From positions 3,520,001 through 3,584,000 of the forward strand of contig CAVOFT010000001.1 in NCBI GenBank assembly GCA_963695095.1: a DNA stretch of 64,000 nucleotides. The letters are read 5' to 3'. Positions 5,654 through 36,188 of the stretch are shown here, in pieces; positions within the stretch are counted from its first letter, which is position 1; each line of letters starts with the position of its first letter. Origin of the DNA: an uncultured bacterium (GTDB lineage Bacteria > Krumholzibacteriota > Krumholzibacteriia > JACNKJ01). The notes beneath the pieces were generated by a model, which was not told the DNA's origin, searched no databases, and worked only from the letters and a program-made list of their open reading frames with translations. The translations under genes and the position numbers were made by a program.

Positions 5654-5751
5654 CCTCCCAGTAGCCGATTCCCGCCGCCGATTCGCCTTGCCCGGCCCGC
5701 CGGCGTCTCCTAGCATGGCGCCGCCGGGCCTCCACCCCGGCGCCCGCCGCC

Positions 5752-6720: not shown

Positions 6721-8006
6721 GCGGGCCTGCCCGCCGCCTCGCGTACCCAGCCCTCGGCGATCTTGCCGATGAGCTGCGTGGCCTTCTCCATCGTCTGCAG
6801 CGAGGCCCACTCGCGCACGCTGTGGTAGTTCTGCCCGCCGGTGAAGACGTTGGGCGTGAGGATGCCCATGTAGGAGAGCCGCGCGCCGTCCGTGCCGCCG
6901 CGGATGACGTCGAGCCGGGGCTCGGCGCCCACCGCGCGCGTGGCCTCCATGGCGATCGCCACGATGCGCGGGTTCTCGGCGAGCTTGGGCCCCATGTTGA
7001 GATAGCTCTCCTTCACCTCCAGCTCGATCTGGGTCTTCGGGAACTCCCGCCGCACCTCGTCGCGGATGCGCTCGAGGATGGCGATCTTCGCCTGCGACGC
7101 CGCCATGTCGAAGTCGCGGATGAGCAGGTGGAGGGTGCAGGTGTCGACCACGCCCTCGATGGCCCGCGGGTGCAGGTAGCCCTGGCGCTTCTCCGTGGTC
7201 TCGGGGCGCATGTCCGCGGGCAGTCGCTGGATGATGGCCGCCGGCGGCGTAGAGCGTGTTGACCATCACGTCCTTCGCAGTGCCCGGGTGCACGTTGTAG
7301 CCCTTGAGGCGGAAGGTGGCCGCGTGGGCGTTGAAGGTCTCGTTCTCGATCTTGCCCAGCTCCTCGCCGTCCAGCGTGTAGGCGATGCGGGCGCCGAAGC
7401 CCGCGACGTCGAACTTATCCGCGCCGCGGCCGATCTCCTCGTCGGGCGTGAAGCCGATGGCGATGTCGCCGTGGAGCAGCGCCGGGTTCTCGACGAAGCG
7501 CTGCACGGCCTCCATGATCTCGGCCACGCCGGCCTTGTCGTCGGCGCCCAGCAGCGTCGTGCCGTCGCTGGTGACGATGTCGTCGCCCAGGCACTTGGCG
7601 AGCACGGGCGAGTCCGCCGCGCGGATCACCTGCGCCGGGTCGCCGGGCAGCACGATGTCCCCGCCCGCGTAGGCGCGGTGCACCTGCGGCTTCACGTTCT
7701 CGCCCGGCGCGTCCGGGCTCGTGTCCATGTGCGCGATGAAGCCGACGGCCGGCACCTTGCCGTGCGGCGGCGTGCCCCGTGGGCAGATTGCTCGGGCAGG
7801 GTCGCGTAGACGTAGCCGTGCTCGTCCAGGCGGGGCGCAAGGCCCATGGCCGCGAGTTCGTCGCGCAGCATCCGCGCGAGGTCGAGCTGCCGGGCGCTGG
7901 AGGGACAGCTCTCCGAGGCCTCGTCCGAGGTGGTGTAGACCTGGCAGTAGCGGATGAAGCGTGCGAGCAGGCGTTCGGTCTCGGGCGCGCGGGGTGTGGC
8001 GGGCAT
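6717..8006 (-). CDS. pepT: Peptidase T (M20B), split by about 2 frameshifts
   Basis: LLARFIRY..DEHGYVYATLP / GFIAHMDTSPD, LGADDKAG, FTPDEEIGRG / IRGGTDGARLS..NYHS in three successive reading segments; GGAGG RBS. Confidence 0.88.
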
Positions 8007-8207
8007 GGCACCTCCTGGAACGCGCGAGTCTACCCGCTCTTCGGGCATCGGTCAACGAGACCGGTAGGCGCTCCATGCCCGCCGCAGCCTGCCGAAGCCG
8101 GCAGGCCAGCATCCGCTGGTCCGATTGGCAGAAGACCATCTGCCGTCTTCCCCGCGGTGCTCCGCGACGCGCCAAGGGCCGCCCGCTGCCGCGGTCTCCG
8201 GCACGCG

Positions 8208-8906
8208 CTAGGTCTCGGCCTCTTCGCCCACGTTGAGACTGACGTTCGTCAACCCCTCCAGCGCGGAGAGCTCGCTCACCAGGGCGCTGTATTGCTCGGC
8301 GTCGCGCATGACGATATGGAAGGTCAAGCGCAGGAATTCGCCGAAGCGCAGGGACTTGATGTTGAGCAGCTCGTGGCGCAGGAGGTAGCGCTTGAAGACA
8401 GGCAAGTAGCGGGAGCTCCCCTCGCTATCGTCGCTGGGGATGAGCTGGAAGCTGAGCAGGAACTCGTTGCGCGCTGTAGCGCCGTGCCGCGTCCAGTGCA
8501 GGATGTTGATGAAGAGACCCACCACGAGCGAACCCAGCACCGCGATCTTGAGATTGCCGCTGCCGGCAGCCATGCCGGCGCCCAGGGAGAAGAAAACGTA
8601 GGCCGTGTCGCGGGTGTCCTTGACCACCGTCCGGAAGCGGATGATGGACATCGCGCCTACCAGGCCGAAGGCCCGGGCAATGTTGGAGCCGATGACCATC
8701 ATCACCAAAGCCATGAGCATGGCCAGCATGACCAGCGTATTGACGAAGCTGAACGAGGTGCTCAAGGAGCGCTCCGTGCTTCGGTAGGCCCAGGCAATGA
8801 ACAGGCCCAGCAGGAAGGCAACGAAGAGGTTGAGGCCGATTTCCGCCGCCGTCCACGGTTCGGGGCGCATGGCGAGGCTCTGGAGCAGGTCGTCCTGGGG
8901 ATTCAC
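8208..8906 (-). CDS. DUF4956-like membrane protein (MgtC-like TM part plus ACT-like C-terminus)
   Basis: VMMVIGSNIARAFGLVGAMSIIRFRTVVKDTRDTAYVF signature; GTG start inferred. Confidence 0.85.
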   Translation of the reverse strand: MNPQDDLLQSLAMRPEPWTAAEIGLNLFVAFLLGLFIAWAYRSTERSLSTSFSFVNTLVMLAMLMALVMMVIGSNIARAFGLVGAMSIIRFRTVVKDTRDTAYVFFSLGAGMAAGSGNLKIAVLGSLVVGLFINILHWTRHGATARNEFLLSFQLIPSDDSEGSSRYLPVFKRYLLRHELLNIKSLRFGEFLRLTFHIVMRDAEQYSALVSELSALEGLTNVSLNVGEEAET

Positions 8907-8917
8907 GAGGCCCTCGG

Positions 8918-9715
8918 CTAGCGTGGGTGGGACTGCCAGGCGTCGATCCCATGGCAGTACTTGGAGTAGGATTGGCGGCGGAGGTCGAAGTCGCGAACCA
9001 GGCGAGCCATCCAACTCGGCATGCGCTGGTCGAACTTCAGCTCGAGGATGAAATGGCCATCCTCGAAGGCACGCAGCTCGCGCTCCGCAAAGAGCTGGTC
9101 CAGGCGGGGATCGATGAGACTGCGAAGCCTGAGATCGAAGGTCACGCGCGAATCCGGGTGATCGACGCCGACCATGGGCTCGCGCTCATAGCTCACCAGG
9201 ACCACCGGTCGCAGGTTGTTGGCGCGGACGTTGTAGCGAAAGCGCTGGATGACGCAACGCTTGGTGAAGGGCAGCGAGGCCTCCAGGCCGCTCCCGCCTG
9301 CCAGCGCCGGCAGCAGCTGGCTCGCGGGCAGTGACAGGCGTTCCTTGAAGCCGAGCCGGCCGTGCTTGCGCTTGATTTCGAAGAAAATCGGCGCATTGTC
9401 CGCGGGGCGTTCGTAGCCGCGGATGCGCAGCTTCTTGCGGACGCAGACGCTGTCCGCTTTCTCGTGATAGAAGACCAGATCCTCGCTATCGAAGTAGATG
9501 CTGCGCACCGTATAGCGTCGCTCCGGGCGGTTGAGCGCAAAGGGATCGGGCGCGACGCAGCCCACCAGCGCACGCCGAAGCTCGGGCACCATGGTCAGCG
9601 GCAGGCGGTACTTGTACTCGTAGCGATGGAAGCCTGCGGCGGGCGACGGAGCAGCGATGCGGTCGATCTGCGGACCGACAGCTTGCCCGGTGCCGGTTGC
9701 GCGATTCGCGCTCAT
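8918..9715 (-). CDS. VTC-domain polyphosphate polymerase-like protein (CYTH/TTM fold)
   Basis: RYEYKY, SIYFD, RKKLRIRGY, FFEIKRK, SYERE, RVTFD, ILELKF and SKYC motifs. Confidence 0.88.
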   Translation of the reverse strand: MSANRATGTGQAVGPQIDRIAAPSPAAGFHRYEYKYRLPLTMVPELRRALVGCVAPDPFALNRPERRYTVRSIYFDSEDLVFYHEKADSVCVRKKLRIRGYERPADNAPIFFEIKRKHGRLGFKERLSLPASQLLPALAGGSGLEASLPFTKRCVIQRFRYNVRANNLRPVVLVSYEREPMVGVDHPDSRVTFDLRLRSLIDPRLDQLFAERELRAFEDGHFILELKFDQRMPSWMARLVRDFDLRRQSYSKYCHGIDAWQSHPR

Positions 9716-10812
9716 GGGCCCAGTTCCCGGAACAGGGCCGACTGGAGCCCACGCCTGGCGCGGGTGAGCAGGGTGCTGCGCCCCACGCTGATGCGCGCGC
9801 GGCCTTGCATACCTGCTTCGAGGCGGCCGTCGACATCGGGCAGGAGACCCACAGCGCGAATATAAGGCCCGCGCTCGGTGGGAATGACATCCTGCTCCAC
9901 CCGCAGCAGAGTGCCATGGAAGACCTCGTTGCCCAATCCGGGAATCAAGGCGTGGATAGCTTGCCCTGACTCGAGCTCATCCGCGCGCCGCTGGGGCAGC
10001 AGCACGCTGGCCACGAAGCTATCCGTGGCCGCGACGCGCAGCAGAACGCCGGCTTCAGGATTCATCCGCAGCTCGCCCGCGATGGGCGACCGGATCGCCA
10101 GGCTGCTGTGAACGGCTTCCACCGCCTGGAGCTCGCGCTCCAGGGCAAGCAGGGCATCCTCGGCGCGGGCGATCTCCGTGGGGCGATCCCCGCTCTCGAG
10201 CACTTCGATCTCGGCCGCCGCAAGCAACAGGTCGAGCTGGAGGAGGTCGTGCCGCGCCTGGATCTCCTCCCACTCCTGGACGCTGATCCCGCCCTCCGCG
10301 AAGAGCGCCTGGCTGCGCGCGTAGTGCGCGGACTGCGACGCCAGTTCGGAGGCCGCTCGCTCCCGCTTCAAGTGGGCATGGCTCAATTCCGCTGGCTTGG
10401 CTCCGGCCCGCAGGCTCACCAGCCGGCCCCTGGCCTCTGCCAGCGCAGTACTGCGTTCCGCCAGCTCCAGGTCGAGATTGCTGGAGCTCAACTCCGCCAC
10501 GACGTCACCGGCTCGGACCCTGGCGCCGGGAAGCCCGGTGTCCCCGATGCCCAGCTCCAGCACCGCCTCCCGGGAGAACTGGTGAATGCGGCAACCCAGG
10601 ATGCGCCCAGCGAGGCGATCTTCGGTGCGCGCTTCGTAGGAGCCCACCCGACGCTCCAGGAGCGTCCAGGCCCGTACCGGCTCGAGGACGCAATAGCCCG
10701 AAACTCGCCCCTCCAGGGGAAGGTAGGCGCTGCACAGAATCACCAAACCCAGCGCACCGAGGATACCGAGCCAAAGGCTCAGGACGCGGCGCGGTCTAGG
10801 GACGAAAGACAT
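9712..10812 (-). CDS. HlyD/membrane-fusion-protein family periplasmic adaptor
   Basis: N-terminal TM; VRAGDVVAEL lipoyl half-motif; long coiled coil; IRSPIAG; LEAGMQGRARI; stop overlaps the VTC start (ATGA). Confidence 0.75.
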   Translation of the reverse strand: MSFVPRPRRVLSLWLGILGALGLVILCSAYLPLEGRVSGYCVLEPVRAWTLLERRVGSYEARTEDRLAGRILGCRIHQFSREAVLELGIGDTGLPGARVRAGDVVAELSSSNLDLELAERSTALAEARGRLVSLRAGAKPAELSHAHLKRERAASELASQSAHYARSQALFAEGGISVQEWEEIQARHDLLQLDLLLAAAEIEVLESGDRPTEIARAEDALLALERELQAVEAVHSSLAIRSPIAGELRMNPEAGVLLRVAATDSFVASVLLPQRRADELESGQAIHALIPGLGNEVFHGTLLRVEQDVIPTERGPYIRAVGLLPDVDGRLEAGMQGRARISVGRSTLLTRARRGLQSALFRELGP

Positions 10813-10944
10813 GGCCTCCTGCACCTCGAGAGGCAGCGCCGACAGCTGGGGGAGCCCCGAGGCGGCGTGAATGTGCTGAGCGACGGTTGGGGCGGGTGCA
10901 ATGCCCGCCCCGCTGTTTCGATTCGGTGCTGTGCCGTGCCGAGA

Positions 10945-11394
10945 TCATGGCCGGCCTTCGTGCGCCCCGGGCGCCCCGCTGGCACGAGGCTGGGGGGCTC
11001 GCGGTCCATGGCTGCGGCTGAATGCCTCGAATTTCGAGACCTGTTCGCCGATCAGCAAAGCCTTCACCGAGTTCTCCAGTTTCTTGCGCAGGGCGTCCAT
11101 CGCCTCGCGGCCGGGCCGCTGCCCAGTTCCAGCGCCGGCCATCAGCTGCTCGACCTCGGCGAAGTGCGCGAAGTGGAGCGCCGTGATCCGCACGCGCTGC
11201 TCCTCGCTCAGGGAGACCGCCGCGGCCATCTCGGTCATCATCCGCTCGATCTGCACGGAGTCGGGCGGCGCGGGGGGCTGCATCTCGCCACCCCCGGGCC
11301 TCTGTCCGCGGCTGCCCGCGGGAGCGCTCAGCGCGGCACCCGCCCACAGCAGGCAGAGGAGCAGCAGTGCGGTCGATTTGCTTGGGTTCTTCAT
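10945..11394 (-). CDS. Small secreted Spy/CpxP (LTXXQ)-like helical protein
   Basis: Signal peptide; LSEEQ and LIGEQ motifs; Gly/Pro/Arg-rich ends; AAGGAG RBS. Confidence 0.65.
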   Translation of the reverse strand: MKNPSKSTALLLLCLLWAGAALSAPAGSRGQRPGGGEMQPPAPPDSVQIERMMTEMAAAVSLSEEQRVRITALHFAHFAEVEQLMAGAGTGQRPGREAMDALRKKLENSVKALLIGEQVSKFEAFSRSHGPRAPQPRASGAPGAHEGRP

Positions 11395-11597
11395 GACCTT
11401 CTCCTTCGTCGACTTGCGTTGCGCAGGGGTGTCACTGCCTGACTGAACGCCTGGGCCTGCCATCCCTTTCGCTGGAGCTACTTGCACTCGCATCATCGAA
11501 AGCGGGCGAGTTGCTGCAGTCCCTCGCTGTGCGTGGCCATGGCGTAAGCACTTCCGGCAGAGGCGGGTCCTCGGCGTCGTCTCGCCGCCGTAGGTGG

Positions 11598-14070
11598 TCA
11601 GCGAAGCAGGATCAGTCTCCCTGTCCGGAGCTCGGCACCGAGGGAAAGTTGCGACAGGTAGACACCCGATGGCGCGGAGTCACCACTCCGGTCGCGCCCA
11701 TCCCAGACGACCTGGTACCGTCCGGCCGGTAGGGTCCTGTCGAGGAGGTTGGCGATCAGCCGGCCTTCCACGTCGTAGATCTCCAGGCCTACCCGGCCCG
11801 CGCTGGGAAGCTCGAAGGAGAGCGTCGTCTGCGGATTGAATGGATTGGGAAAGTTGGTCAGGAGGCGCAGCGCGGCAGGCGCAGATGCGGGTACGCTGGA
11901 CGAGCCGCTATTGCTCGCACCCGGCGTGGGCGTGGTGAAGAACGCCCAGCTGTCCCCGCCGTCACGGCTGCGACCCTCACTGACATTGCTGGTCTGCGCG
12001 CCGAAGGCGTAGCCGTCGATCGCCTCGTTACCCGCGGCGAGACGCCCGAACAGGCCGATCTCCTCGCCGTCGCCGCTCAGCTTGAAGTTCGCGTGCAGGG
12101 GGCCGTCCGACTCGTCGCTGTCGCACCAGACCAGGAGGAAGCCGCCGGCCGCGAGCAGCGTGTCGGGGAAGGCCCACTGTGTCGTGAGCGCGAGGTCGTC
12201 GGTCAGGAACAGACCGGCCATCTGGACCGCGTCGGGGCCGGGATTGTAGATCTCGACCCAGTCCTCGTACTCGCCGGCCTCGTCCTGGATGCCCGCGTCG
12301 TTCAGGGCCATGAACTCGTTGATCCACAGCGTGATCGACTCGGGCTCCTGCGGATTCTGGTTCTCGGCGCCGGGCGTGGCCAGGGACAGCATGGACCAGT
12401 CGCCCGTCGCCGTCGGGCCAGCGGCCCCAGCTGACGTCCGTGCCGAGTGCGGGGAAGGTGACCTGATCGATGATCACGGCGCCGTCGGTGAGGAAGACAT
12501 CCTCCCCATCGGTGTCGAGCTTGAAGGGAGCGTGCAGAGCGCCCTCGGCGGGCTCCTCGTCCGCCCATACGATCACGTACTCACCGGGGGCCAGGGACAT
12601 CGACGGGAACACGAAGTCGGGCGTTCCCTCCAGGTGATCGGTGAGGCCCAGGCCGCTCAGATCGAGGCTCATGCTGCCGGTATTGGCAATCTCGATCCAG
12701 TCCTCGTAGTCGCCGGCCCCGTCGGCGATCGTAGCGCCGTTGTCTGCCATCACCTCGTTCAGGACCAGGCCCGTCGGCGCGGTCCAGGTGCCGAGCAGCC
12801 CCTGCAGGTAGTTGTACCGGGAGGTGACGAAGGTCTGCAGGGCGGGGATCAGGCGGGGCGGCCCACCGACCGCTGCGTAGACGTTCGCGGTCATGCAGGC
12901 CTCGAACTGAGCCGGTGTGAACATCGTGTTGGGGTCGTCATACACAAAGGGTCGGATCATGTCCCGGAGCTCTGCCATGCGCGCGACGAGCGTGGCTGGA
13001 ACCGCCGCCGTGGACATCAGCTTCCGCATGTGCCCAAGATAGACGTCGACGTAAGCGTCCACTTGCCAGAGGCGCTCGGCCAGGGGGCGATTCGCGCCGG
13101 GCTGGGGATTGGTCCAGTAGGGGCTCAGCTGGTGCATCTGGGTCGTCGAGAGGTTGTACATGTTGAAGATGCCCCAGGACTCATTCTGGTCCCACTTGGT
13201 GAAAACGAAGCGGTCGTCCAGATCGCGGTGGTAGAAGTAGAAGTTGGCGCAGCGGCCGACGTAGCTATCCAGGTTGACCGTGTAGTTGTCGACGGCGAGC
13301 ATCGCGAGCGCGGAACTGACGTCGAGCCGGTTGTGCAGACTATCGGACAGCGCTGAGATGGGCGTGTTGTTGAGCTTGTCGACGAAATCCACGAGATCGG
13401 ACCAGTCGTTGGCCGTCTCGTTGGTCTTCAGCTCGTAGTCGTCGTAGTAGGCGGACTCGGCGGAACCTAGATACTCGAGAGTGCCCGCGGGCTCACCCTT
13501 CCACAGATTGCCGTCCTCGCCGGTGCCCCAGCGGCTCTCGATGAACTCCTGGTCCTGCTGCTCTACCAATAGGTAGAGGCCCCAGTAGCTGCCGTTGATG
13601 GTCAGGGCGGTATAGTTCGTGCGGCAGGTGGCCATGCCCAGGGCCTCGCAGAGTTCGTAGGTCGCTTTCTCCCGGACATAGCTCGGGTCGAGGAAGCAGT
13701 TGTTCAGGCTGAGCTTGTCCAGCCCCTCGAACTCCTGGCCCGTCACGAACTCGTCGATGTCCAGCTTGAATGACTTCTTGAGCCCGTAATAGCCCCAGTA
13801 GCTGCTGTTGCCCTTGAAGCGCACGCCAATGGTCTCGAGATGCGTCGACCCCCAGTCGAGGCTGGCCTCGAGGTAGGGCGGGTCGTCGAAGTTCTCGAAG
13901 TTGGTGGTCAGCTGCTGCCACCAATCGGGCTGAGCAAAAGTCAACTGGATCTCGTGGACCGCGTCCCCTTCGAACAGGGGATTCGACGCCGGGCTCAAGG
14001 CCCCGAGGGCGGCAGTCCCCGGAAGGAGCAATGCAATCGTGACGAGGATCGAGAGCTTGACCTGATTCAT
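11598..14070 (-). CDS. Secreted CotH kinase + two lamin-tail domains + FlgD-Ig C-terminal domain; 1-nt frameshift near 12404
   Basis: GVRFKGNSS, KKSFKLD, LNN..DPSYVRE, NLDSY and WDQNESWG; two (L/I)NE.MA.N..DW.E..N LTD repeats; FPNPFNP tail; extra G in GACGGGCGACTGG. Confidence 0.85.
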
Positions 14071-14121
14071 GGTGGGGTCCCCTGCTGGATCGGTGGATTC
14101 GAATTCGTCGGCTCGTTCGGC

Positions 14122-14721
14122 TCAACGAACGTGGACGCGAATCCTTTCGGACTTCTCGAGGGCTCTCGTGCGGCTAGGGCGGCGGCGGGCTCCCGTGGCG
14201 CGGCGGGGGGGGCCGCCCGGGCCGCGCTGCGGCCGGCCAGAGATCATGGGCTCCACGGTGGAGAACCTAAGCCGCTGCTCCGGCGTCAGCACGGCGCCTT
14301 CCGCCACCAGCATCACGGCGGAGAGGGAATCCATCCTGGCGCGGGCAGTCCCGACCGCCACGGCCAGCTGGCGAAACCCCTGCGGGTCGAACTCCGGTGC
14401 GGCGAAGGACGCCGCAAGTTCGCGGCCGGTCCGGGCCACGTCGGACTGGAGTTCGAGAAGCAGGGGGGCATGGGGCTCCAGCACCTCGCGAATGGCCTGC
14501 TGCTGCGTCACATCGAGGCCCAGGTGGCGGGTGATCCCCTGCAGGTGGATTTCCACGAACTGCTCGGGGCTAGGCGGAGGACCCTGGTCGGGGTGTCCGT
14601 CGCCCGGCAGTGGCGGCTGATCCTGGGAGTCACCCCAGCCATGGATGAGCGTTGTTGCGATCACGCCCACATTCAGGCCGACGGATAGGGCGAGCAGCAG
14701 GACGATGAGCCGTTTCGACAT
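14122..14721 (-). CDS. Spy/CpxP/ZraP-like periplasmic protein (heavy-metal-sensor family)
   Basis: LLLALSVGLNVG N-terminal anchor; LDVTQQQAIRE and LTPEQR motifs. Confidence 0.75.
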   Translation of the reverse strand: MSKRLIVLLLALSVGLNVGVIATTLIHGWGDSQDQPPLPGDGHPDQGPPPSPEQFVEIHLQGITRHLGLDVTQQQAIREVLEPHAPLLLELQSDVARTGRELAASFAAPEFDPQGFRQLAVAVGTARARMDSLSAVMLVAEGAVLTPEQRLRFSTVEPMISGRPQRGPGGPPRRATGARRRPSRTRALEKSERIRVHVR

Positions 14722-14732
14722 GGTTTGCCTCC

Positions 14733-15146
14733 TCAGTCCTGCCCGGACTGGTAGACGCCCAGCAGGGAGGAACTTGCGGCGCTGTCCCAGAGGGTCACGG
14801 TTTCCATCCAGGCCAGCTCGTTCCCGGCCTGCTTCTCGCCGAAGCGGACCGGCCCCAGCAGCACGCCGAGGAGGATGCCCGCTGCGCAGGCAGCAATCGC
14901 GTAGGCAGGCCTGAACCTCGATCCGTGCCTCTCTCCGGGCTGCACCCGCGGCCAGACTGCGCGGGCCAGCTTGGGGGCCGGAGTGCTGGCCAGGATTCCT
15001 GACAGGCGCTGCAGTTCGGCCAGTTCTGCTCGGCAGGTCTCGCAGCGCTCACAGTGCGAGGCAAGCTCCGCCGCGGTGACCGGATCCAGTTCGTCGTCAT
15101 GATAGGCCTGCAGCACCGGTCCGGCCGGATGCTTCGCCTTGCTCAT
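14733..15146 (-). CDS. zf-HC2 anti-sigma factor
   Basis: YHDDEL..HCERCETC (HxxxCxxC), single TM; start overlaps the sigma stop codon. Confidence 0.85.
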   Translation of the reverse strand: MSKAKHPAGPVLQAYHDDELDPVTAAELASHCERCETCRAELAELQRLSGILASTPAPKLARAVWPRVQPGERHGSRFRPAYAIAACAAGILLGVLLGPVRFGEKQAGNELAWMETVTLWDSAASSSLLGVYQSGQD

Positions 15147-15700
15147 TGCTCATTCCTCCAAGATACGAGGTCCTTTCTCAGCGCGTTCATCGCCCGGTGC
15201 AGCAGCATCTGCACTGAGGCGATCGAGGTCCCCATCGTCTCGGCGATCTCCTGGTAGCGCAAATCCTGGTACTGCTTCAGCACCAACGCCTGCCGCTGTC
15301 GTTCAGGCAGGCGCCCGATGGCCGCCTGCACACGGTCGCTCTCCTGCCGACCGGCGAGTTCGTCGAAGGCGTCCGGCCCCGATGCCGGCCTCTCGGCATG
15401 ATCCTCTGTCAGCGGCAGCCAGCGCAGGATCTTGCGGCGGCGCAGCCGGCTGCGCGCCTGGTTGCCCGCAATGCGGAAGAGCCAGCTCTGGAACTTCCCT
15501 TCGGGCTGATAGCCATCCGCAGCCTTGATCACGTTGACGAAGGTGTCCTGGCACAGGTCTTCAGCCTCCTCCGCCGAGCCGAGCATGCGCACCAAAAAGC
15601 CGAACACGGGCTGTTCCCAGCGCTCCACGAGAATCCGGAGAGCGTTCTCGTCGCCCGCACGATAGTCGCTCATCAGGGCGTCGTCGTTTCGGTCTGTCAT
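15143..15700 (-). CDS. ECF RNA polymerase sigma factor
   Basis: AEDLCQDTF, FQSWLFRIAGN and LPERQRQALVL..YQEIAE motifs. Confidence 0.92.
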   Translation of the reverse strand: MTDRNDDALMSDYRAGDENALRILVERWEQPVFGFLVRMLGSAEEAEDLCQDTFVNVIKAADGYQPEGKFQSWLFRIAGNQARSRLRRRKILRWLPLTEDHAERPASGPDAFDELAGRQESDRVQAAIGRLPERQRQALVLKQYQDLRYQEIAETMGTSIASVQMLLHRAMNALRKDLVSWRNEQ

Positions 15701-15767
15701 GCAGTCCGTTCTGCCCAACGCAGGGTGCGGCATTTTCTTTCGGGATATCTGCGGACGATTCGAGGCC

Positions 15768-15797
15768 AGAATAGGCAAGAGCGGCGGATGCTGTCAA
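15768..15797 (-). promoter_or_regulatory. Sigma70-type promoter for the ECF operon
   Basis: TTGACA-18nt-TATTCT on the minus strand, ~70 nt upstream of the sigma ATG. Confidence 0.55.
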
Positions 15798-15994
15798 AGC
15801 GGGGCGGAAGAAAAGCCCGAAAGGCCGAGAGTCTCCAGACGTTCTGCCGGACGATAGCAGACCATCGGAGAATCGGTGGATCGACCGGCAAGCTGGCTCG
15901 GATCGACCCGGATGAGGAGCGCTGCAATGGTCATCAGACGAATCGGCAGCTGCATCGGCTGATCTGGGTCCGTGTAAACCGAACACCTGCCTTC

Positions 15995-16683
15995 CAATCA
16001 GCAAGGCTCGCCAGTTGATGGGCTACAGCCGCGCCAAGTTCTACGAGATCCTCCGCAAATACCTAGCTTACGGTTCCCAGGGCCTGCTGGACATGCTGCC
16101 GGGTCCAAGACCCCCCACCCCAATCGCGTAACTCCCGAGGTCGATCAGGCCGTGCTCGAGCATGGCCTCCGGCATCCGAGCCACGGGCCAATGCGGGTCA
16201 GCCAGGAGCTGCGGCTCGAGGGTATTCACGTCAGCGGCAAGGGCGTCCGCAGCGTCTGGAGCCGACACAAGCTCCTGACGAAGCTTGATCGGCTGTTGCG
16301 CCTGGAGAAGACGATGCGTGAGCAGCGCCTCTAGCTGAGTGACGAGCAGATCCGCCTTCGTGGACACGCTCAAGGGCGTAGGCCGCATCTGCCTGCAGGC
16401 TGTTCCTGTAGCTGAAGGAGATCGAGCACAGCAGAACCTGGGTGCAGCGGCCCCAGAGCAACGGCTATGTGGAGCGCCTGCACCGGACGCTTCTCGATGA
16501 ACACTTCCGATGATGGGCCGCACCAGGGTCGAGGCATGGAGAGCCGGACGCCCTGGCAGGCTTTCAAGGATGGCCCGAAGCTGCGACCGAAGACGAAGGC
16601 TGTCAAGGAGGAGGTCGAGAAGGAGGCCGCCTAGAGAGCAACCCAAGCAGGTGCGACTGCCAGGTGATTTTGGACTCGGTACA
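15995..16683 (+). mobile_element. Degenerate IS481-family element (transposase pseudogene with right terminal repeat)
   Basis: ISKARQLMGYSRAKFYEI..HPSHGPMRVSQEL..GVRSVWSRH..; PQSNGYVERLHRTLLDEHF; stops, frameshifts and a core deletion; right end reads TGTACCGAGTCCAAAATCACCTGGCA on the minus strand. Confidence 0.8.
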
Positions 16684-16822
16684 GCCTAGCGGTACGTGTG
16701 GGGCATGAAGGCCCATCGAATCTTCGAGGCACTATTTCGTGCGAAGGTATTTTCGACCTCAGGAGTTTGGCCCGGCAAGAGTCGACGCCTTTTCTTCCAT
16801 CGCCCGATTCAGGAGTTTTGTC

Positions 16823-18238
16823 ATGAAAGGCCCCAAGAACAGCTCCATGCCGACCGTATTGGCGTCAGTCGTCCTTTTCCTGGCCCTAGCCTTCATGGCC
16901 GGCTGCAGCAATGACGACATCACCCAACCCACGACGGTTAATGACACCGTGGACGATACCGATTTCGAAGCCACAGACTGGACCAGCGCCACCCATAGCA
17001 AGGATGCGGACCTGAATTTCGACGAGGTGTTCGAGGACAATACCGTCAAGAGAATCGACATCGTCATCACCGCTGCGCGCTGGCAGACCATGCTGGACAA
17101 CATGACGGACCTGTACGGGGCATTCGGTACCCATGGGGGTATGCCGCTCGATTTCGACCAGGATCCGGTTTTCGTACCGGCCGAGGTGTTCTACAACGGT
17201 GTCGAGTGGTATCGGGTTGGTTTGCGCTTCAAGGGAAACTCCAGCTTGGTTTCAGCCTGGCAGAGAGGAATCTTGAAGCTGGCCTTCAAGCTCGATTTCG
17301 ACGAATTCGAGGATACTTACCCACAGATCGACAATCAGCGGTTCTACGGCTTCAAGAAGCTGAGCCTCAAGAACAACTACGACGACCAATCCATGCTGAG
17401 AGAAAAAGTCGCCGGTGATGTTTTCCGCAATGCCGGGTTGGCCGGATCTCATACGGCGTTCTACACCCTCTATGTCGATTTTGGGGAGGGACCCGTCTAT
17501 TTCGGCGTCTATACCCTGGTCGAAGAAGTCGACGACACCGTCCTGGAAACCCAGTTCGCGGATGACGGCGGCAACCTGTACAAGCCCGACGGTGACGGAG
17601 CCTCCTTCGAAGCTGGGACCTTCAGTCAAGACGTCTTTGTGAAGAAGACCAACGAGGTTGATTCCGACTGGTCGGACATCCAGGGCCTGTTCGACGCCTT
17701 GCACGACGACACCCGAACCCTGGACCCCGCGACCTGGCGCACCAACCTGGATGCTGTCCTTGATACCGAGGCCTTTCTCAAGTATCTGTCGGTCAACACC
17801 GTCATTCAGAACTGGGACACTTACGGGCGAATGACCCACAACTACTACCTCTACAACAATCCTGACACCGGCAAGCTGACCTGGATCAGCTGGGACAACA
17901 ACGAAGCCCTGGAAGAAGGAAAGCTGGGGGGATCCCTGGCCCTAGATTTCTCAGACCTGGAAAGCGGTCGGTGGCCCCTAATAGAGTACCTGTACGCGGA
18001 CGACGTCTATCGGTCCCGATACGACGCATTTGTTTCAGAGACCATCGATGGCGCCTTCAACACGAGTGCGATCCAGGCCACGTATGCGGCCTATGCATCG
18101 CTGATAGAACCGTATGCCACCACAGAGATCGCCGGGTATACCTTCCTCAACGGAGGCGGGGATTTTCATAGGGCCATTTCGGAGCTGAACCAGCACGCTC
18201 TCCAAAGAGCCTTGGCCGTAAGCAACTACCTGGACTAG
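16823..18238 (+). CDS. CotH kinase family lipoprotein
   Basis: MAGC lipobox; GLRFKGNSS, LKNNYDDQSMLRE, NWDTYG..HNYYLY and WDNNEA motifs. Confidence 0.88.
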   Translation: MKGPKNSSMPTVLASVVLFLALAFMAGCSNDDITQPTTVNDTVDDTDFEATDWTSATHSKDADLNFDEVFEDNTVKRIDIVITAARWQTMLDNMTDLYGAFGTHGGMPLDFDQDPVFVPAEVFYNGVEWYRVGLRFKGNSSLVSAWQRGILKLAFKLDFDEFEDTYPQIDNQRFYGFKKLSLKNNYDDQSMLREKVAGDVFRNAGLAGSHTAFYTLYVDFGEGPVYFGVYTLVEEVDDTVLETQFADDGGNLYKPDGDGASFEAGTFSQDVFVKKTNEVDSDWSDIQGLFDALHDDTRTLDPATWRTNLDAVLDTEAFLKYLSVNTVIQNWDTYGRMTHNYYLYNNPDTGKLTWISWDNNEALEEGKLGGSLALDFSDLESGRWPLIEYLYADDVYRSRYDAFVSETIDGAFNTSAIQATYAAYASLIEPYATTEIAGYTFLNGGGDFHRAISELNQHALQRALAVSNYLD

Positions 18239-18340
18239 TGAAAGCTCCATGCTTCAAGTTCAGCGGCAGCGCGAAAGGGAGAGCGGCGAAGCGGGGGGCT
18301 AACTTGGACCGGAATCACCGCAATCCGCAGGAGCTAGGAA

Positions 18341-18556
18341 ATGACCATAAGTAGCATAAATGGATGCATCGGTTGCGAGGAATGCGTGCAGTCTTGCCCA
18401 TGCGATGTCATTCAAATGGACAAGGCGACCGGCAAGGCGATGATTGCATATCCGGCCGATTGCCAGATCTGCCATCTGTGTCGGATGTACTGCCCGGTGG
18501 ACGCGATCACCATCTCGCCGGAGAAGTCCATCCCGGTCGCGGTTTCCTGGGGGTAG
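18341..18556 (+). CDS. 2x[4Fe-4S] ferredoxin (AprB-like)
   Basis: CIGCEECVQSCP and CQICHLCRMYCP. Confidence 0.9.
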   Translation: MTISSINGCIGCEECVQSCPCDVIQMDKATGKAMIAYPADCQICHLCRMYCPVDAITISPEKSIPVAVSWG

Positions 18557-18558
18557 TC

Positions 18559-19236
18559 ATGAAACCCAACGCAAGAGCCTTTGTCCTTGCCGCCGCCCTG
18601 GCGGTTTTCATCGGCCTGCCGCTGCTCCTTTACACGCTGGACGGCGTGCCCCGCCGGTCGTTCCTGAAAGAGGCGATATCGGTGCTGACCCTGCTGTCCT
18701 TCTCCCTGATGCTGGGCCAGTTCTTCCTCGCGCGCAGCAACGCGGCGCTCCTGGAACTGTTCAGGCCGCGCCAGATCCAGAAGGTACACAAGGTCATCGC
18801 CTACGGCGCGGTAGGCGTGTTCTCGGTGCATCCGTTCCTGATCGTGCTGCCGCGATACTTCGAGGCGGGGGTAAAGCCCGGAGATGCGCTGATCACCCTG
18901 TTGACCACCTTCGCCAGCCTCGGCGTCCTGCTAGGTATTGCCGCCTGGGGGTTGATGGTGGTGATGCTGGTCACGGCGATGTTCCGCATGGCGCTGGTCA
19001 AGCGCTTTTCCATCCACTATCGCCACTGGCGCTTCTTCCACAGCGGGCTGACGGTGACCTTCATTGCCATCGCCATGTGGCATGCGATTGAACTGGGGCG
19101 TCACACCGACGCCGCCATGGCCACGTTCATGATCACGCTCGCGGCGATCGGTGTGGCGATGCTGGCGCGTCTGTACTGGGCCGCACGACCGAAGACACCC
19201 ACACCTGCTGTGGTTTCTGAAGGAGCCAAGTCATGA
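18559..19236 (+). CDS. Ferric-reductase-like transmembrane (heme b) protein
   Basis: About 6 TM helices; His pairs in VHK..SVHP and WRFFH..MWH. Confidence 0.75.
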   Translation: MKPNARAFVLAAALAVFIGLPLLLYTLDGVPRRSFLKEAISVLTLLSFSLMLGQFFLARSNAALLELFRPRQIQKVHKVIAYGAVGVFSVHPFLIVLPRYFEAGVKPGDALITLLTTFASLGVLLGIAAWGLMVVMLVTAMFRMALVKRFSIHYRHWRFFHSGLTVTFIAIAMWHAIELGRHTDAAMATFMITLAAIGVAMLARLYWAARPKTPTPAVVSEGAKS

Positions 19237-20972
19237 CCCAATCACACGATGCATCCGCCCTCACGCGCCGCGAATTCCTGGCCATGTCGGGCAGCGTTGT
19301 CGGGCTTGCCTCGATGGGGCTGGCTGGCGCCTGGGCGAGGAACATGGTCGAACTGGATCCCAGCGCGATCACCAACACCGACCACGCGACCGATGTGCTC
19401 GTCATTGGCGGCGGCATGGCAGGGCTGTTCGCTGCGGTGAAGGCGCACGACGCCGGGGCCAGCGCGATGATCGTGTCCAAGGGACGGCTGGGATCCTCCG
19501 GCATGACTCCCTTCGCCAAGGGGTTCTTCCTCTATGATCCCGAGACCGAAGAGATTTCGGTGGACGAGTTTGTGGACACCGTATCCCGCTCGGCGCTTGG
19601 CACCAGCAATCCGGTCTACACTCGCCAACTGGCCGAGCATTCCCTGGATCGGGCGCGCGAGCTGCGCGAGTGGGGCTTCTTCGATCAGACCCTGGCGAAC
19701 CGGCCGTTCATGAAACCCATCACGGAACGGGACATCCCGCTGATCGAACGGGTGGTCATCACCCATCTGATCAAGGAAGACGGGAAGATCGCAGGTGCCG
19801 CCGGCTTCCGCCTGGACGCCGAGGAGACAATCACCATCCAAGCAAAGACGGTGATCCTGTGCACCGGGGCTGGCGGCTTCAAACCCAGTGGTTTTCCGGT
19901 CTGCGATCTGACCCACGACGGCACGATCATGGCCTATCAGATCGGTGCGAAGGTCACCGGCAAGGAATGGAACGACGGCCACGCCGGAAGGTCCGTCAAT
20001 CCCGCGGCCTGCTATGACGGCTGGGGCGACATGTTCGATCGCATCCCGGGCACGAACGGTGTCGAGGTCCACCATGATCTGGGTGTCGAGGCGAACTACC
20101 AGGCCTACGTGCTGGGAAACCCCGTTGGCGGGGGCCCGCCGGGCCGCGGCAACGGCAGCACCGTTGCCGGCGGCCCGACCACGCCGCAGGAATTCCAGCG
20201 TACGGGGCGCCCCGGCCCCGGGCCGGACGGCGAGGGCGGAGGCCCGCCTCCCGGCGGCGGCGCCCCGGGCGCGGACGCCATGCGAGGCCATTCCATGGGC
20301 GGAGCTTCCGCAGGCATGGCCATCCACAAGTCGGAAGGAGTGGTGCCAATCGATGATCGCTGTGCCTCCAACATCCCCGGCCTTTACGCGGCGGGCGATG
20401 CCCTGGGCAGCTACATGGCGGGCGCCATCTATACCCAGATCGGCTCGTCCCTGGCTGGATCCGCCGTGCAGGGCGCCATCGCGGGCGAAGCGGCAGCGGA
20501 ATTCGCCGCAACGGTGGCTGCGCCGACCATCCCCGACGCCAAACTGGCCGAAGTGATCGACGACATCCTCGCGCCCCTGAAACGCGAGGCCGGCTATGGG
20601 CCCGCATGGGTCACTCAGACGCTTCAGGGCGTGATGATCCCGAACTTCGTGCTCTACATCAAGAAAGAGCCGATCATGCTAGCCGCGCTTGCCTATATCG
20701 AGGAACTGCGCGACCACCACGCGCCGATGCTGCGCGCAGCCAACATGCATGAGCTGCGACTGGTGTTTGAGACCCGCAACATGATCCTGAGTGCCGAGAT
20801 GAAGCTGCGGGCGTCACTGATGCGCACCGAAAGCCGGTGCAGCCACTATCGGTTGGACTACCCGGACACGGACGATGAGAACTGGCGGGCCTGGATCAAC
20901 ATCCTCAAGGGCGCGGATGGCCGCATGCGACTCGAGAAGCAGGCCTTCGACAGCTGGCCCGACCGGGCTTAG
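19233..20972 (+). CDS. Tat-exported FAD-dependent oxidoreductase, SdhA/FrdA/AprA superfamily
   Basis: TRREFL Tat motif; DVLVIGGGMAG; IPGLYAAGD; RTESRCSHYRLDYP. Confidence 0.85.
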   Translation: MTQSHDASALTRREFLAMSGSVVGLASMGLAGAWARNMVELDPSAITNTDHATDVLVIGGGMAGLFAAVKAHDAGASAMIVSKGRLGSSGMTPFAKGFFLYDPETEEISVDEFVDTVSRSALGTSNPVYTRQLAEHSLDRARELREWGFFDQTLANRPFMKPITERDIPLIERVVITHLIKEDGKIAGAAGFRLDAEETITIQAKTVILCTGAGGFKPSGFPVCDLTHDGTIMAYQIGAKVTGKEWNDGHAGRSVNPAACYDGWGDMFDRIPGTNGVEVHHDLGVEANYQAYVLGNPVGGGPPGRGNGSTVAGGPTTPQEFQRTGRPGPGPDGEGGGPPPGGGAPGADAMRGHSMGGASAGMAIHKSEGVVPIDDRCASNIPGLYAAGDALGSYMAGAIYTQIGSSLAGSAVQGAIAGEAAAEFAATVAAPTIPDAKLAEVIDDILAPLKREAGYGPAWVTQTLQGVMIPNFVLYIKKEPIMLAALAYIEELRDHHAPMLRAANMHELRLVFETRNMILSAEMKLRASLMRTESRCSHYRLDYPDTDDENWRAWINILKGADGRMRLEKQAFDSWPDRA

Positions 20973-21071
20973 CTGCCGCGTTCATGTGCGGCCAGCAAGG
21001 AAACGCGTGTACGCCCGCTTCACTTCTGTTACCTTTCAAGCCCTTTCCCGAACCGGCCGGAACTGGCCCAT

Positions 21072-21755
21072 GTGTCCACCGATCACTCGCCAAAGGAGCC
21101 TATTGTGGAAAGCCCTGGCGTCAGACGGACCACCAACCTGATTCTGTTCCTCCTCGTGTTCGGATGTATGGGCCTCTTCGCGGGAGGCTGTGGAACTTCA
21201 CGGCTCGTAGAGCTTTGGAGCGATTCCGCGTATACCGCAGGTCCTTTGAACAGGATTCTGGTTATCTCCTTCCGACCGGATCCGGTCCAACGCCGGATTT
21301 CGGAGGATGCTTTCGTCGCGGCGCTCCAGAAGCGGAACGCGGTCGCGGTACCGTCTCACCAGCTCTTCCCCGAGGCAATTCCCGACACGACCGCTTTGCG
21401 TCAGAAGCTCGAGGAGGAACGCTTCGATGGGGTCCTCGTGCTCGTCAAGGCCGAGCGCGAGATGATCGAATCCCACGTGCCTGGCTACACGACCCGCGAT
21501 GAGGTCACCACGTTCGATACTCGATGGAATAAGTACGTGACTCACCGCGAGACGGTTCAACATGAGGGGTATACGGAAACGGTCATGTCGATACGGATAC
21601 AGACCGACCTTCTGCTGGCGCAGGAAGGGGGACGACTGCTCTGGTCGGGGACGAGCGAAACGATCGACCCAACCTCCCGTCAGCAGGTGAGGGAAACCGT
21701 TGCGGAACTCGTTGCCAGAGAACTACAGAGACAGAAGTTGATCCCGGCGGAGTAG
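21072..21755 (+). CDS. Hypothetical lipoprotein (DUF4136-like)
   Basis: AGGC lipobox; RRISEDAF and LLWSGTSETIDP; start codon uncertain. Confidence 0.65.
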   Translation: MSTDHSPKEPIVESPGVRRTTNLILFLLVFGCMGLFAGGCGTSRLVELWSDSAYTAGPLNRILVISFRPDPVQRRISEDAFVAALQKRNAVAVPSHQLFPEAIPDTTALRQKLEEERFDGVLVLVKAEREMIESHVPGYTTRDEVTTFDTRWNKYVTHRETVQHEGYTETVMSIRIQTDLLLAQEGGRLLWSGTSETIDPTSRQQVRETVAELVARELQRQKLIPAE

Positions 21756-21892
21756 TGAACCTGCCTCCCTGTCCCGCAGATTCCGTCGGCCTTGGCCCAG
21801 ATCAGGCTAAGACCTTCTCGTCATGGTGAGATCGGGAGACGGAACCGCCCCGGGATTGCCGTCGACTCCACGTTCTCGAGCAGATGGAGTTA

Positions 21893-21908
21893 TGGCACGG
21901 CCTAAGCA
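21893..21908 (+). promoter_or_regulatory. Possible sigma54 -24/-12 promoter
   Basis: TGGCACGGCCTAAGCA (TGGCAC with exact GG-N10-GC spacing). Confidence 0.4.
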
Positions 21909-22103
21909 ATAGCCCCGGGAGCTGCGAGAGCGGGCGATCCGCCCGATCCGATTTTTGCGGTTACTTGCTCCTTATCGCAACTCCTCTCCAGATAGGTGCT
22001 GCGATGACCATTTGAATCAGGGCAGTGCGCATCGATTCGTTTCGCTGGGCTCGTGTGTTCTCAGCTCACCCGCGCCAGGACGCGCCGCCAAGGGAGGATC
22101 TGC

Positions 22104-22547
22104 ATGCCGGAAGCACTGCGCGTTGTCGCCCGATTCAGCGATGGCAGCATCCTCAAGGGCAACACCTGGGATTTCAATCCCACTGGCCGGATGTTCCACC
22201 TCTTCCCGATCGGCAGCACCGAGGCCTGCGAGGTCCAGTGCGACCAGCTCAAGGCGCTCTTCTTCGTCAAGACCTTCGAGGGGGACCGGGAGCGGCCCAA
22301 GCTCAAGGGCTTCCTCGCGGCTCCGTCCGAGACCTCCAAGGGCAAGAAGGTGGCGGTCCTGTTTCGGGATGGTGAGCTCGAGTGCGGCTACTCGTTGACC
22401 TACAACCCGAACCGCAGCGGGTTCTTCCTCTTCCCGGCGGACAACGCCAGCAACAACATCCGCGTCTTCGTCATCGTGGCGGCCGCAGCGGAGATCAAGG
22501 CTGGTCCGGCGGCCGATGCCCTCGCGGAGCGGGTGCTCGCGAGCTAG
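22104..22547 (+). CDS. Hypothetical protein with internal duplication (DUF6982-like)
   Basis: GGAGG RBS; VVARFSDGSILKG / VAVLFRDGELECG repeated halves; LKALFFVK; GFFLFPAD..NN. Confidence 0.7.
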   Translation: MPEALRVVARFSDGSILKGNTWDFNPTGRMFHLFPIGSTEACEVQCDQLKALFFVKTFEGDRERPKLKGFLAAPSETSKGKKVAVLFRDGELECGYSLTYNPNRSGFFLFPADNASNNIRVFVIVAAAAEIKAGPAADALAERVLAS

Positions 22548-22608
22548 GCGGGCGCGACCAGGGACCCTGCCGCTCCCTAGGCCATGAGGACTTGGCTGGC
22601 GAGCCGCG

Positions 22609-22637
22609 TTGCCTGCTGGCGATTGATCTGCTAATAT
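22609..22637 (+). promoter_or_regulatory. Sigma70-type promoter
   Basis: TTGCCT-17nt-TAATAT with extended TGn, upstream of 22765. Confidence 0.5.
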
Positions 22638-22764
22638 TATCGTGTTCGCCGGACGCCGGATGGGGAGAGCGCCTTCCCCCGCATCCGGTGCCCTCCAGTA
22701 CTGCAGAGGATGTGATTCGGGAAATGGGCGGGTGTCGACTCCAAGCGGCACGAGGAGTGGCAAC

Positions 22765-23340
22765 ATGAAGCGACTCGCGATTGCCTTCCTGATTCTGCTC
22801 GCGGCTGGGGATGCCACCGCCCAGTGGTACCCGCTCATTGGAATCTACGGCAGCGAGGCCGGAGTCACCTGCGAACTGGACATGGACCCGTACGTCCAGG
22901 CCACCGCCTACCTCCTCGCGGTCCTGCCCGACGACATGCCCGGGATCACGGCTTGCGAGTTCCGCATCGACAACCTGCCGACGCCGGAAATGGCGCTCAT
23001 CTTCTACGACTGGAATACGCCGCTGGTCATCGGCAGCGCGGGCTACGGCATCGCCCTCGCCTTCTCCCCGCCCCTGATCGGCCGTGCGGTCCCCCTGGGC
23101 TCGATCTCCCTTTATCCGCTGCTCAACATCCCGGACGATTGGCGACTGACCATCGAGCCCAGCTACAGCAGCGGCCAGCTCCTCGTCGTCGACCTGAGCT
23201 ACGAAGAGATCCCCGCCAACGGCGACTTTCTCACCCTCAATTGCACGGGGGCCATTTTCTGGGGCTGCAATTGCCTGTTTCCCTGGTGGACCACGGCCGT
23301 GCAGGAGAACTCCTGGGGTCAGATCAAGGCCCTCTACTAG
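22765..23340 (+). CDS. Secreted protein with C-terminal TAVQENSWGQIKALY tail
   Basis: GAGGAG RBS; signal peptide MKRLAIAFLILLAAGDATA; beta-rich body. Confidence 0.8.
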   Translation: MKRLAIAFLILLAAGDATAQWYPLIGIYGSEAGVTCELDMDPYVQATAYLLAVLPDDMPGITACEFRIDNLPTPEMALIFYDWNTPLVIGSAGYGIALAFSPPLIGRAVPLGSISLYPLLNIPDDWRLTIEPSYSSGQLLVVDLSYEEIPANGDFLTLNCTGAIFWGCNCLFPWWTTAVQENSWGQIKALY

Positions 23341-23455
23341 CTGCCGCGATCAGTCAGATTTCGCAGCGCGGTGTAGAGGGCTCTGCTCATGCCGCCGCGG
23401 GCGCCCTCCCGGCCTGCGGCCGCCTGTGCTATCTTGGGCGCCGGAGGTAGCCACA

Positions 23456-36160: not shown

Positions 36161-36188
36161 CTTCATGGGATCTTTACGCGGTCTTGTT
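36161..36188 (+). promoter_or_regulatory. Pho-box-like 11-bp direct repeats upstream of phoB
   Basis: CTTCAT (36161), CTTTAC (36172), CTTGTT (36183). Confidence 0.6.

Follow-up and report, generated by a model that had tools for sequence, protein, structure and literature searches.

How could a protein kinase that works outside the cytoplasm obtain its phosphate? We know of no phosphoryl donor there for the secreted kinases of the CotH family, and a locus in an uncultured bacterium of the phylum Krumholzibacteriota raises the question directly. The window analyzed here is the whole stretch of 64,000 nucleotides (GenBank assembly GCA_963695095.1, contig CAVOFT010000001.1, positions 3,520,001 to 3,584,000). 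On its minus strand, from 15700 down to 8208, lie eight co-oriented genes in the order that a first, sequence-only reading had claimed. They encode an extracytoplasmic function (ECF) sigma factor, an anti-sigma factor, a periplasmic PF13801 protein, a CotH protein, a small secreted protein, an HlyD-type periplasmic adaptor, a VTC protein (the family of the yeast polyphosphate polymerase Vtc4) and a DUF4956 membrane protein. The module is real and conserved, and represents a new version of a published gene set, one with ECF control and parts for two membranes. Its stable core is the cassette of adaptor, VTC and DUF4956, and a tentative answer to the question is that this cassette would make polyphosphate (polyP) and export it to CotH at the cell surface.

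Conservation was judged over 98 distinct VTC loci (103 were fetched and 5 duplicates dropped); 80 of them are the best of 348 matches, so the sample is biased to this clade. The adaptor gene stands directly before VTC in 85 of the 98 and DUF4956 is present in 92, with four of the six misses at contig ends, while cotH lies within the locus in 43. DUF4956 is found in all 23 VTC-positive genomes among 61 relatives; one more genome, 77% complete, has DUF4956 only. Co-occurrence of VTC and CotH across genomes had been proposed as a check, and it was found: among 128 genomes of the phylum, CotH occurs in 34 of the 36 that have VTC and in 19 of the 92 that do not (131 and 26 matches in total, with kinship inflating any p value). 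Within one family, the corresponding figures are 15/15 and 17/43. The idea that VTC replaces the polyP kinase PPK1 was rejected, as PPK1 (8/36 VTC-positive versus 32/92 VTC-negative genomes) shows no significant exclusion (p 0.21). In this genome, which is 93.5% complete, there are three PPK2 matches and none to PPK1.

The VTC protein is likely a polyP polymerase, judging by its sequence and predicted structure. A single-sequence search of the Protein Data Bank (PDB) gave nothing significant, so a profile built from 119 homologues was used; it matched yeast Vtc proteins only, with Vtc4 the best (E 5e-19). The model (pLDDT 89.8) aligns with Vtc4 (3g3q) over 236 residues with a Z score of 21.1 and a root-mean-square deviation of 3.0 A; Vtc2/3 score about 20, and the best hydrolase or cyclase of the triphosphate tunnel metalloenzyme (TTM) fold scores 13.7. 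The Vtc4 residues required for synthesis, K200, R264, R266, K281, Y359, R361, E426, S457 and K458 (bioRxiv 2023.01.27.525886), correspond, in an alignment with full-length Vtc4, to K35, R97, R99, K115, Y176, R178, E225, S251 and K252 of the window protein. These nine positions are kept in 97-99 of 99 VTC sequences. Fold and active site together thus support the earlier suggestion of a polymerase-type protein; the inactive yeast proteins Vtc2 and Vtc3 lack K458.

Polymerases can be told from hydrolases by an acidic patch (PMC4641920). Of the three glutamates that form metal site 2 in hydrolases, two positions are basic here, as in Vtc4 (R31 and K227), the mapping to AtTTM3 E2/E4/E171 having been made by motif, not by superposition. 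Instead of the ExExK motif and three-Glu site 2 of TTM/CYTH triphosphatases and cyclases, the protein has R-x-E-x-K, and E-x-K for E-x-E. The Vtc4 exit-path residues R196, K294, R373 and K428 are conserved. The protein is a stand-alone domain without SPX, fused three-helix membrane domain or hydrophobic segment, and it is the only VTC match in the whole genome, which lacks a Vtc2/3-like inactive partner. No VTC relatives were found in viral contigs.

The membrane partner appears, on sequence and model, to be MgtC-like in architecture and not recognizably Vtc1-like. Its model combines five helices with an ACT-fold domain that scores Z 8.0 with MgtC (2lqj). Fold searches with the whole model returned ACT-fold proteins only, the ACT domain filling the list, and no VTC membrane chain; a sequence search of the PDB gave nothing significant. 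Matches to MgtC families stay below the cut-offs (Pfam 1e-4, 22.6 bits versus 31.4; NCBIfam 4e-7, 29.7 versus 214). An R[FY]R motif is present in 118/118 DUF4956 matches, duplicates included. A predicted complex of two DUF4956 chains and VTC scored 0.00 in both runs and was used neither for nor against an interaction.

The adaptor is unusual in its company. As the sequence-only reading held, it has no ABC or RND partner among the proteins scanned with Pfam in the genomic island that carries the locus; the island holds no ABC, MFS, RND or TolC gene, and DUF4956 is the only inner-membrane partner in the unit. The protein matches Pfam HlyD_D23 only weakly (0.008), and its family profile matches MacA (E 3e-20), as well as ZneB, EmrA and AcrA. 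No full-length match was found in 38 VTC-negative genomes. Related loci showed no pump or TolC gene beside the adaptor (Pfam on 90 of 219 called neighbour proteins, then on 63, and a TolC profile). Elsewhere the genome has about seven TolC-type genes; the idea that TolC is a fourth member of the core was rejected, since none was found beside the cassette in this clade. One TolC gene lies about 10 kb from the cassette in locus L161, after a TetR gene. A second VTC clade has a different adaptor family, placed after DUF4956 instead of before VTC; the 10 genomes out of 128 that have it are all VTC-positive (8 of the 10 are training rows of its profile). This adaptor is followed by a MacAB-type set in 2 of 8 aligned loci (L156, L161). 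In a divergent VTC clade (L160, L163, L164), DUF4956 is followed by DUF2490 where the adaptor would stand. PLD-like genes directly precede the cassette in L033, L042, L057 and L059, and Ppx/GppA phosphatase and Na/Pi cotransporter-PhoU genes adjoin it divergently in the same-family loci L032, L035 and L038.

The CotH domain scores 199 bits in Pfam, above the cut-off, and keeps D268, N276, W293 and D294. In B. subtilis CotH, D228 and D251 are catalytic and adenine lies between Tyr142 and Trp245 (bioRxiv 469122); the N-x-D and W-D aspartates of 5jd9, which D268 and D294 match in the alignment, have the 23-residue spacing of D228/D251. Among 54 CotH domains, D294 and N276 are each conserved in 54/54 and D268 in 43/54, and a His stands at the first catalytic Asp position in 7/54. 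The idea that secreted CotHs have lost the Tyr that stacks adenine was dropped, as that position is W190 or K191 depending on the alignment. The signal peptide, lamin-tail domains (LTD) and sorting tail indicate that the protein acts outside the cytoplasm. Among 54 loci with a complete cotH, a Por_Secre_tail/FlgD_ig tail was found by Pfam on CotH in 37/38 adaptor loci versus 2/16 adaptor-less ones, and our own tail profile found it in 38/38 adaptor loci; most of the adaptor-less loci have beta-helix CotHs with an N-terminal anchor, set among glycan genes. The genome has SprA and PorV homologues and 148 FlgD-type tail matches, which suggests an export system like the type IX secretion system (T9SS) in the phylum, so the tail plausibly directs export past the outer membrane. 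This pattern fits an adaptor being needed where the consumer, CotH, lies outside.

The sequence-only reading had taken CotH-LTD-LTD-FlgD as one open frame. In fact it spans two frames, 12028-14070 and 11598-12392, and is broken near 12400. An assembly indel is the likely cause, because the nearby peptidase gene that we take to be pepT (6717-8048, minus strand) is also fragmented and another split gene turned up in a survey of 37 orthologue matches, three of which cover it. Intact single-frame versions exist in locus L058 (79% and 66% identical on either side of the break) and in the genome's third cotH. The latter, also a CotH-LTD-LTD-FlgD protein, lies just past the window (G000:C1:3587898-3590393, minus strand), is 35-40% identical to the broken one and is not preceded by any of the genome-wide matches to the ECF promoter motif. 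The second CotH, just beyond the eight genes on the opposite strand (16823-18238), is 53-84% identical to CotHs at the VTC loci L154, L160, L161, L163 and L164.

Control by the ECF factor, also claimed at the outset, is supported by a shared promoter motif (GAAAG-N16-CGTT) before sigma, cotH and the VTC unit. A matrix was built from 22 sites of relatives, with the window excluded, and scanned over 3.64 Mb; its seed rule came from an alignment that included the window. It is still a better test than a search with the plain pattern, which was written after the sites had been seen and whose chance estimate is therefore not independent. Seven matches reach at least 12 bits, and the top four are all within the island, although the fourth (18.2 bits, second cotH) is barely above an unrelated fifth (18.0). 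Because these are the four best matches genome-wide, sigma, cotH, the adaptor-VTC-DUF4956 unit and the second cotH look like one regulon. The motif recurs in 22/27 upstream regions of relatives' sigma and cotH orthologues, and in L161 it stands directly before VTC, where neither an ECF nor a cotH gene precedes. Loci L032-L051 (20) have only two 12-bit matches, both away from the cassette; 18 of these loci are from genomes scored for the close ECF subfamily, and none carries that ECF. Sites of the sigma70 type number 2 in the region versus 0.6 expected, and orthologous ECF genes also have a TTGAC box upstream.

The gene set carries the ECF part in a minority of cases, as an addition restricted to certain lineages. 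The full trio of ECF, anti-sigma and PF13801 genes occurs in 0/98 of the VTC loci above; L072 has ECF and Spy-like genes, and L058 a PF13801-like gene at a contig end. The close ECF subfamily is present in 16/128 genomes and shares a stretch with VTC-DUF4956 in 4 of 20 further stretches (L154, L157, L158, L160), where the ECFs are 73-77% identical to that of the window; these overturned the idea of an ECF link found in this genome only. Distant trios (39-57% sigma identity) exist without VTC. By gene order, the trio has the layout of ECF281, formerly part of ECF20, with a zinc-finger anti-sigma at +1 and a heavy-metal resistance (PF13801) protein at +2 (PMC7826278). It differs in that its subfamily (64-77% identity) is tied to cotH and to the GAAAG-N16-CGTT promoter; the main text and one supplement of the ECF281 description mention neither CotH nor polyphosphate. 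Further apparent regulon members, by motif, in L154, L158 and L160 are Lcl_C (DUF1566) proteins, another CotH-LTD followed by an arylsulfotransferase-like gene, and a ferric-reductase-like/FAD oxidoreductase pair, whose genes follow the same motif in L154 and L155.

Read together, the module would be an envelope-stress regulon that brings polymeric phosphate to the cell surface, either on it or close by. On sensing a signal, the PF13801 protein and the zinc-finger anti-sigma factor would free the ECF factor, which would then transcribe its own gene, both cotH genes and the adaptor-VTC-DUF4956 unit from the computed promoters. VTC, with its complete Vtc4-type active site, would make polyP from cytoplasmic ATP at a DUF4956 oligomer, and the conserved basic RFR loop of DUF4956 would take the chain and move it through the inner membrane. 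From there the adaptor would convey the polymer through the periplasm, up to a channel of the outer membrane whose gene lies elsewhere. CotH, carried past the outer membrane by its sorting tail, could phosphorylate proteins or glycans of the surface with polyP, either directly or by way of ATP generated from it. Membrane-coupled polyP synthesis with export to a surface CotH is the best reading of the sequences and models, held at less than even confidence; one point in its favour is that two different adaptor families adjoin VTC-DUF4956 in two VTC clades. Delivery of polyP to the cell surface by this set would be an undescribed route. A broader generalization, which we regard as doubtful, is a split bacterial VTC machine: a TTM polymerase would feed an MgtC-like channel and then, in two-membrane cells with a surface CotH, a pump-less adaptor, and CotH-family enzymes would use polyP in place of ATP. 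If true, it would be a polymerization-driven secretion route and would supply energy to extracellular kinases of a widespread class. The small soluble enzyme and the three-gene cassette offer a handle on bacterial polyP release and on the extracellular phosphoryl donor of CotH, and the promoter motif defines a regulon to examine.

Several points weigh against polyP export to CotH. In the literature found, no activity is reported for any bacterial VTC protein, and in the accessible part of a study of S. intermedius, deletion of the polymerase is not reported to reduce aggregation (PMC12345266). E33, a hydrolase-type metal ligand where Vtc4 has T198, is invariant (99/99). The helices of DUF4956 are poor in basic residues compared to the Lys/Arg rings of the yeast pore, and MgtC, which it resembles, is a regulator (PMC12345266). 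The adenine-stacking Trp of Bacillus CotH is kept (W293, 47/54) and fits ATP as the substrate. TolC beside the adaptor is absent in the 103 loci scanned, apart from one weak match at a locus edge, and the link of adaptor to sorting tail comes down to about three changes on a 53-row tree, with two independent pairs, and is not significant. The 19 VTC-negative genomes with CotH mean that the dependence is not absolute, and ECF-anti-PF13801-cotH occurs in G110, G112 and G121, whose fragmented assemblies gave no VTC or DUF4956. Finally, the frameshifted main cotH may be a pseudogene.

Part of this would be expected if VTC were a hydrolase or transferase of nucleotides or short polyP, or made a small ligand for the ACT domain, while an MgtC-like DUF4956 regulated or released ATP or phosphate and CotH used ATP. 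E33 and W293 agree with such a scheme, as do the sub-cut-off MgtC matches with the ACT fold of MgtC in DUF4956; a similar tunnel is also no guarantee of polymerase activity, as AtTTM3 does not polymerize, and the Lys458 equivalent occurs in a hydrolase too (PMC4641920). Nevertheless, with two of the three site-2 glutamates replaced by Arg/Lys, the Vtc4 exit path kept and a fold much nearer Vtc4 than any hydrolase, we consider this rival unlikely.

A different role for CotH would leave the export of polyP intact. The polymer could itself be the final product, a polyanion at the surface or in the periplasm that binds metal or cations under stress, with CotH anchoring, trimming or recycling it rather than using it to phosphorylate other substrates. 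The trio layout shared with the heavy-metal-linked ECF281 (PMC7826278) would suit this role, as would the EF-hand and ferric-reductase-like genes that recur nearby, the Na/Pi transporter and Ppx genes that flank the cassette in L032, L035 and L038, and the lack of a nearby cotH in 32/51 well-flanked adaptor loci. The conservation of the CotH catalytic residues speaks against this role, and the adaptor-less versions, with beta-helix CotHs among glycan-synthesis genes, indicate a glycan acceptor; an end product seems quite unlikely on balance.

The history of the locus bears on whether its parts belong together. In congener G002 the flanks of the island are separated by 85 bp, and in congener G001 they enclose 8.6 kb of different content; neither congener gave VTC, DUF4956 or CotH matches. 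GC content at third codon positions is 0.74-0.90 in the island versus 0.92-0.95 in three flanking genes. The cassette is 72% DNA-identical to same-family L035, its sister on a quick VTC tree, and 67-83% identity to other-family loci is seen for the ECF-cotH part, the second cotH and the oxidoreductase genes; since the halves have different closest relatives, the operon is a hybrid of an ECF-cotH module and an adaptor-type cassette. An IS481 remnant sits between the ECF-cotH operon and the second cotH. Elsewhere the ECF-cotH module accompanies other VTC clades, and the same join is seen in L058. That two separate modules (ECF-anti-PF13801-cotH and a tethered cytoplasmic polyP synthase made of adaptor, VTC and DUF4956) were joined on the island with no direct functional link is improbable: the different relatives of the halves (72% to L035; 70-80% to other families), the occurrence of ECF-cotH without VTC and the lack of a PPK1 match would allow it, but the ECF-cotH part stands beside VTC-DUF4956 of other clades in L154, L157, L158 and L160, the motif precedes VTC itself in L161, VTC and PPK1 are not mutually exclusive, and a cytoplasmic synthase would need no adaptor.

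The statement that no characterized pathway has this composition holds for the mechanism, as none was found in the literature searched, and fails for the gene set, which has precedent at pel loci. A cotH gene, a polyP polymerase gene and DUF4956 have been described beside pel genes (PMC7112168), and the C. perfringens locus NELoc-2 includes VTC and CotH genes (PMC2879425). In S. intermedius, SIR_1592-1594 were deleted gene by gene; all mutants still made Pel, and deletion of cotH or of the DUF4956-type gene lowered aggregation by more than half in one medium (PMC12345266). According to the accessible part of that paper, its authors did not find the trio outside pel loci, a finding that, for other phyla, is contradicted by the loci here. 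Literature searches, with most subscription papers out of reach, found no description of the adaptor version, the ECF link, a mechanism or bacterial VTC activity. Reviews, in their accessible parts, treat VTC polymerases as eukaryotic (PMC10657179, PMC12526157), and a 2026 preprint, whose organism is said to lack a VTC4 homologue, calls the making and release of extracellular polyP by bacteria open (PMC13484657).

Compared to known systems, the module is familiar in its parts. With Gram-positive pel loci it shares three co-oriented protein families, a secreted CotH and a DUF4956 with MgtC-type helices and ACT; it differs in its adaptor, the outer-membrane sorting tail of its CotH and its own ECF regulon. 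Pel loci have contiguous pel genes, whereas pelDEADAFG, DUF4832 and other glycan-synthesis genes were not found among the island proteins scanned. The yeast VTC complex (Vtc4/Vtc3/Vtc1; 3g3q, 8i6v, 7ytj) has the closest fold, that of Vtc4, the same nine catalytic residues and likewise a membrane-protein neighbour, but the window enzyme has no SPX, fused membrane domain or inactive partner and has Glu for T198, and it is accompanied by an MgtC-like membrane protein that carries an ACT domain. Bacillus CotH (5jd9) shares the kinase-fold domain (E 1e-15 single, 2e-55 profile), both catalytic Asp and the adenine-stacking Trp, and the window protein adds a signal peptide, two lamin-tail domains and a sorting tail; the B. 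subtilis control genome has CotH and no VTC match. The adaptors of MacAB-TolC, EmrAB-TolC and AcrAB-TolC (MacA, EmrA, AcrA) are homologous, with membrane anchor and hairpin, but the unit here lacks the ABC, MFS, RND or TolC gene of those tripartite systems.

The features of the locus are collected in the table. The families named at the outset were confirmed by Pfam (VTC E 2e-38, DUF4956 4e-15, CotH 2e-58, LTD twice, FlgD_ig 6e-9), which also identified Sigma70_r2/r4, zf-HC2 (4e-4) and, in the first Spy-like gene, Metal_resist (4e-12). The Spy-like label stands for that gene and is weakly supported for the second (10945-11394): Pfam and NCBIfam searches gave no match, and its profile matched one LTXXQ/Metal_resist protein at 8e-5. 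The anti-sigma factor matches an NCBIfam anti-sigma model at 4e-7, below the cut-off, and HCExCxxC is conserved in 11 aligned sequences. The 4-nt ATGA overlaps of sigma with anti-sigma and of adaptor with VTC are as claimed, as is the 11-nt spacing between VTC and DUF4956, which starts with GTG at 8906. The description as a single operon is right about orientation and overstates the coupling: because gaps of 203 nt after cotH and 132 nt after the small secreted protein gene occur along with internal promoters, the eight genes are not one tightly coupled transcript. The last 20 or so residues of the PF13801 protein may be misread through a slip in a run of C, since its orthologues have 179-183 residues and the frame as read extends across the cotH promoter.

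Features of the locus and its surroundings (positions in the window)
Feature	Position	Strand	Basis or remark
Sigma70-type promoter-like site TTGACA-18-TATTCT upstream of ECF gene	15768..15797	-	Consensus match only
ECF-type motif GAAAG-N16-CGTT before sigma gene, probable autoregulation	15714..15741	-	29.3 bits, genome best
ECF sigma factor, 185 aa	15143..15700	-	Pfam Sigma70_r2/r4_2
Anti-sigma factor, zinc-finger HxxxCxxC, one membrane helix, 137 aa	14733..15146	-	zf-HC2, hydropathy
Periplasmic PF13801 (Spy/ZraP/CnrX-like) protein, probable sensor partner	14122..14721	-	Pfam
ECF-type motif before cotH	14121..14148	-	23.4 bits, third in genome
cotH: secreted CotH kinase-fold, two lamin-tail domains, C-terminal FlgD/T9SS-type sorting tail, frameshift near 12400	11598..14070	-	
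ECF-type motif heading small secreted protein-adaptor-VTC-DUF4956 unit	11443..11470	-	24.2 bits, second in genome
Small secreted helical protein, weakly Spy-like, 149 aa	10945..11394	-	Orthologues in L156, L160, L092
Periplasmic adaptor (membrane fusion protein), VTC-dedicated subfamily, N-terminal membrane anchor, 366 aa	9712..10812	-	Family profile
VTC (TTM-fold) protein, cytoplasmic, predicted Vtc4 polymerase active site, 265 aa	8918..9715	-	Pfam, profile, model
DUF4956 membrane protein, five predicted helices and C-terminal ACT-fold domain, MgtC-like, 232 aa	8208..8906	-	Pfam, model
Decayed IS481-family transposase remnant	15900..16620	+	tblastn to IS481 transposase annotations; stops, frame changes
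Variant ECF-type motif before second cotH	16743..16770	+	18.2 bits, fourth in genome
Second CotH, lipoprotein-type signal, no sorting tail, probable regulon member, 471 aa	16823..18238	+	Pfam CotH 2e-66
Ferric-reductase-like membrane protein and FAD oxidoreductase	18364..20972	+	Accompany module in L154, L155
Genomic island between pepT and UbiX-type flavoprotein gene	8065..23420	.	Congener flanks, GC content at third codon positions

Apart from the duplicated LTD and the pair of cotH genes, a repeat search of the island found nothing. The pepT-like gene beside it lies in three frames (7692-8048, a middle part within the open reading frame 5710-8175, and 6717-7211), and the breaks are probably due to assembly indels; its last piece matches Pfam Peptidase_M20. 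An HNH_2 endonuclease gene (4698-5627, plus strand; Pfam) stands between glutamine synthetase and TerC genes. About 20 kb from the island, at 36165-39539 on the plus strand, a response regulator, a PAS histidine kinase and a PBP_like_2 binding protein form a set that is presumably akin to phoBR-pstS.

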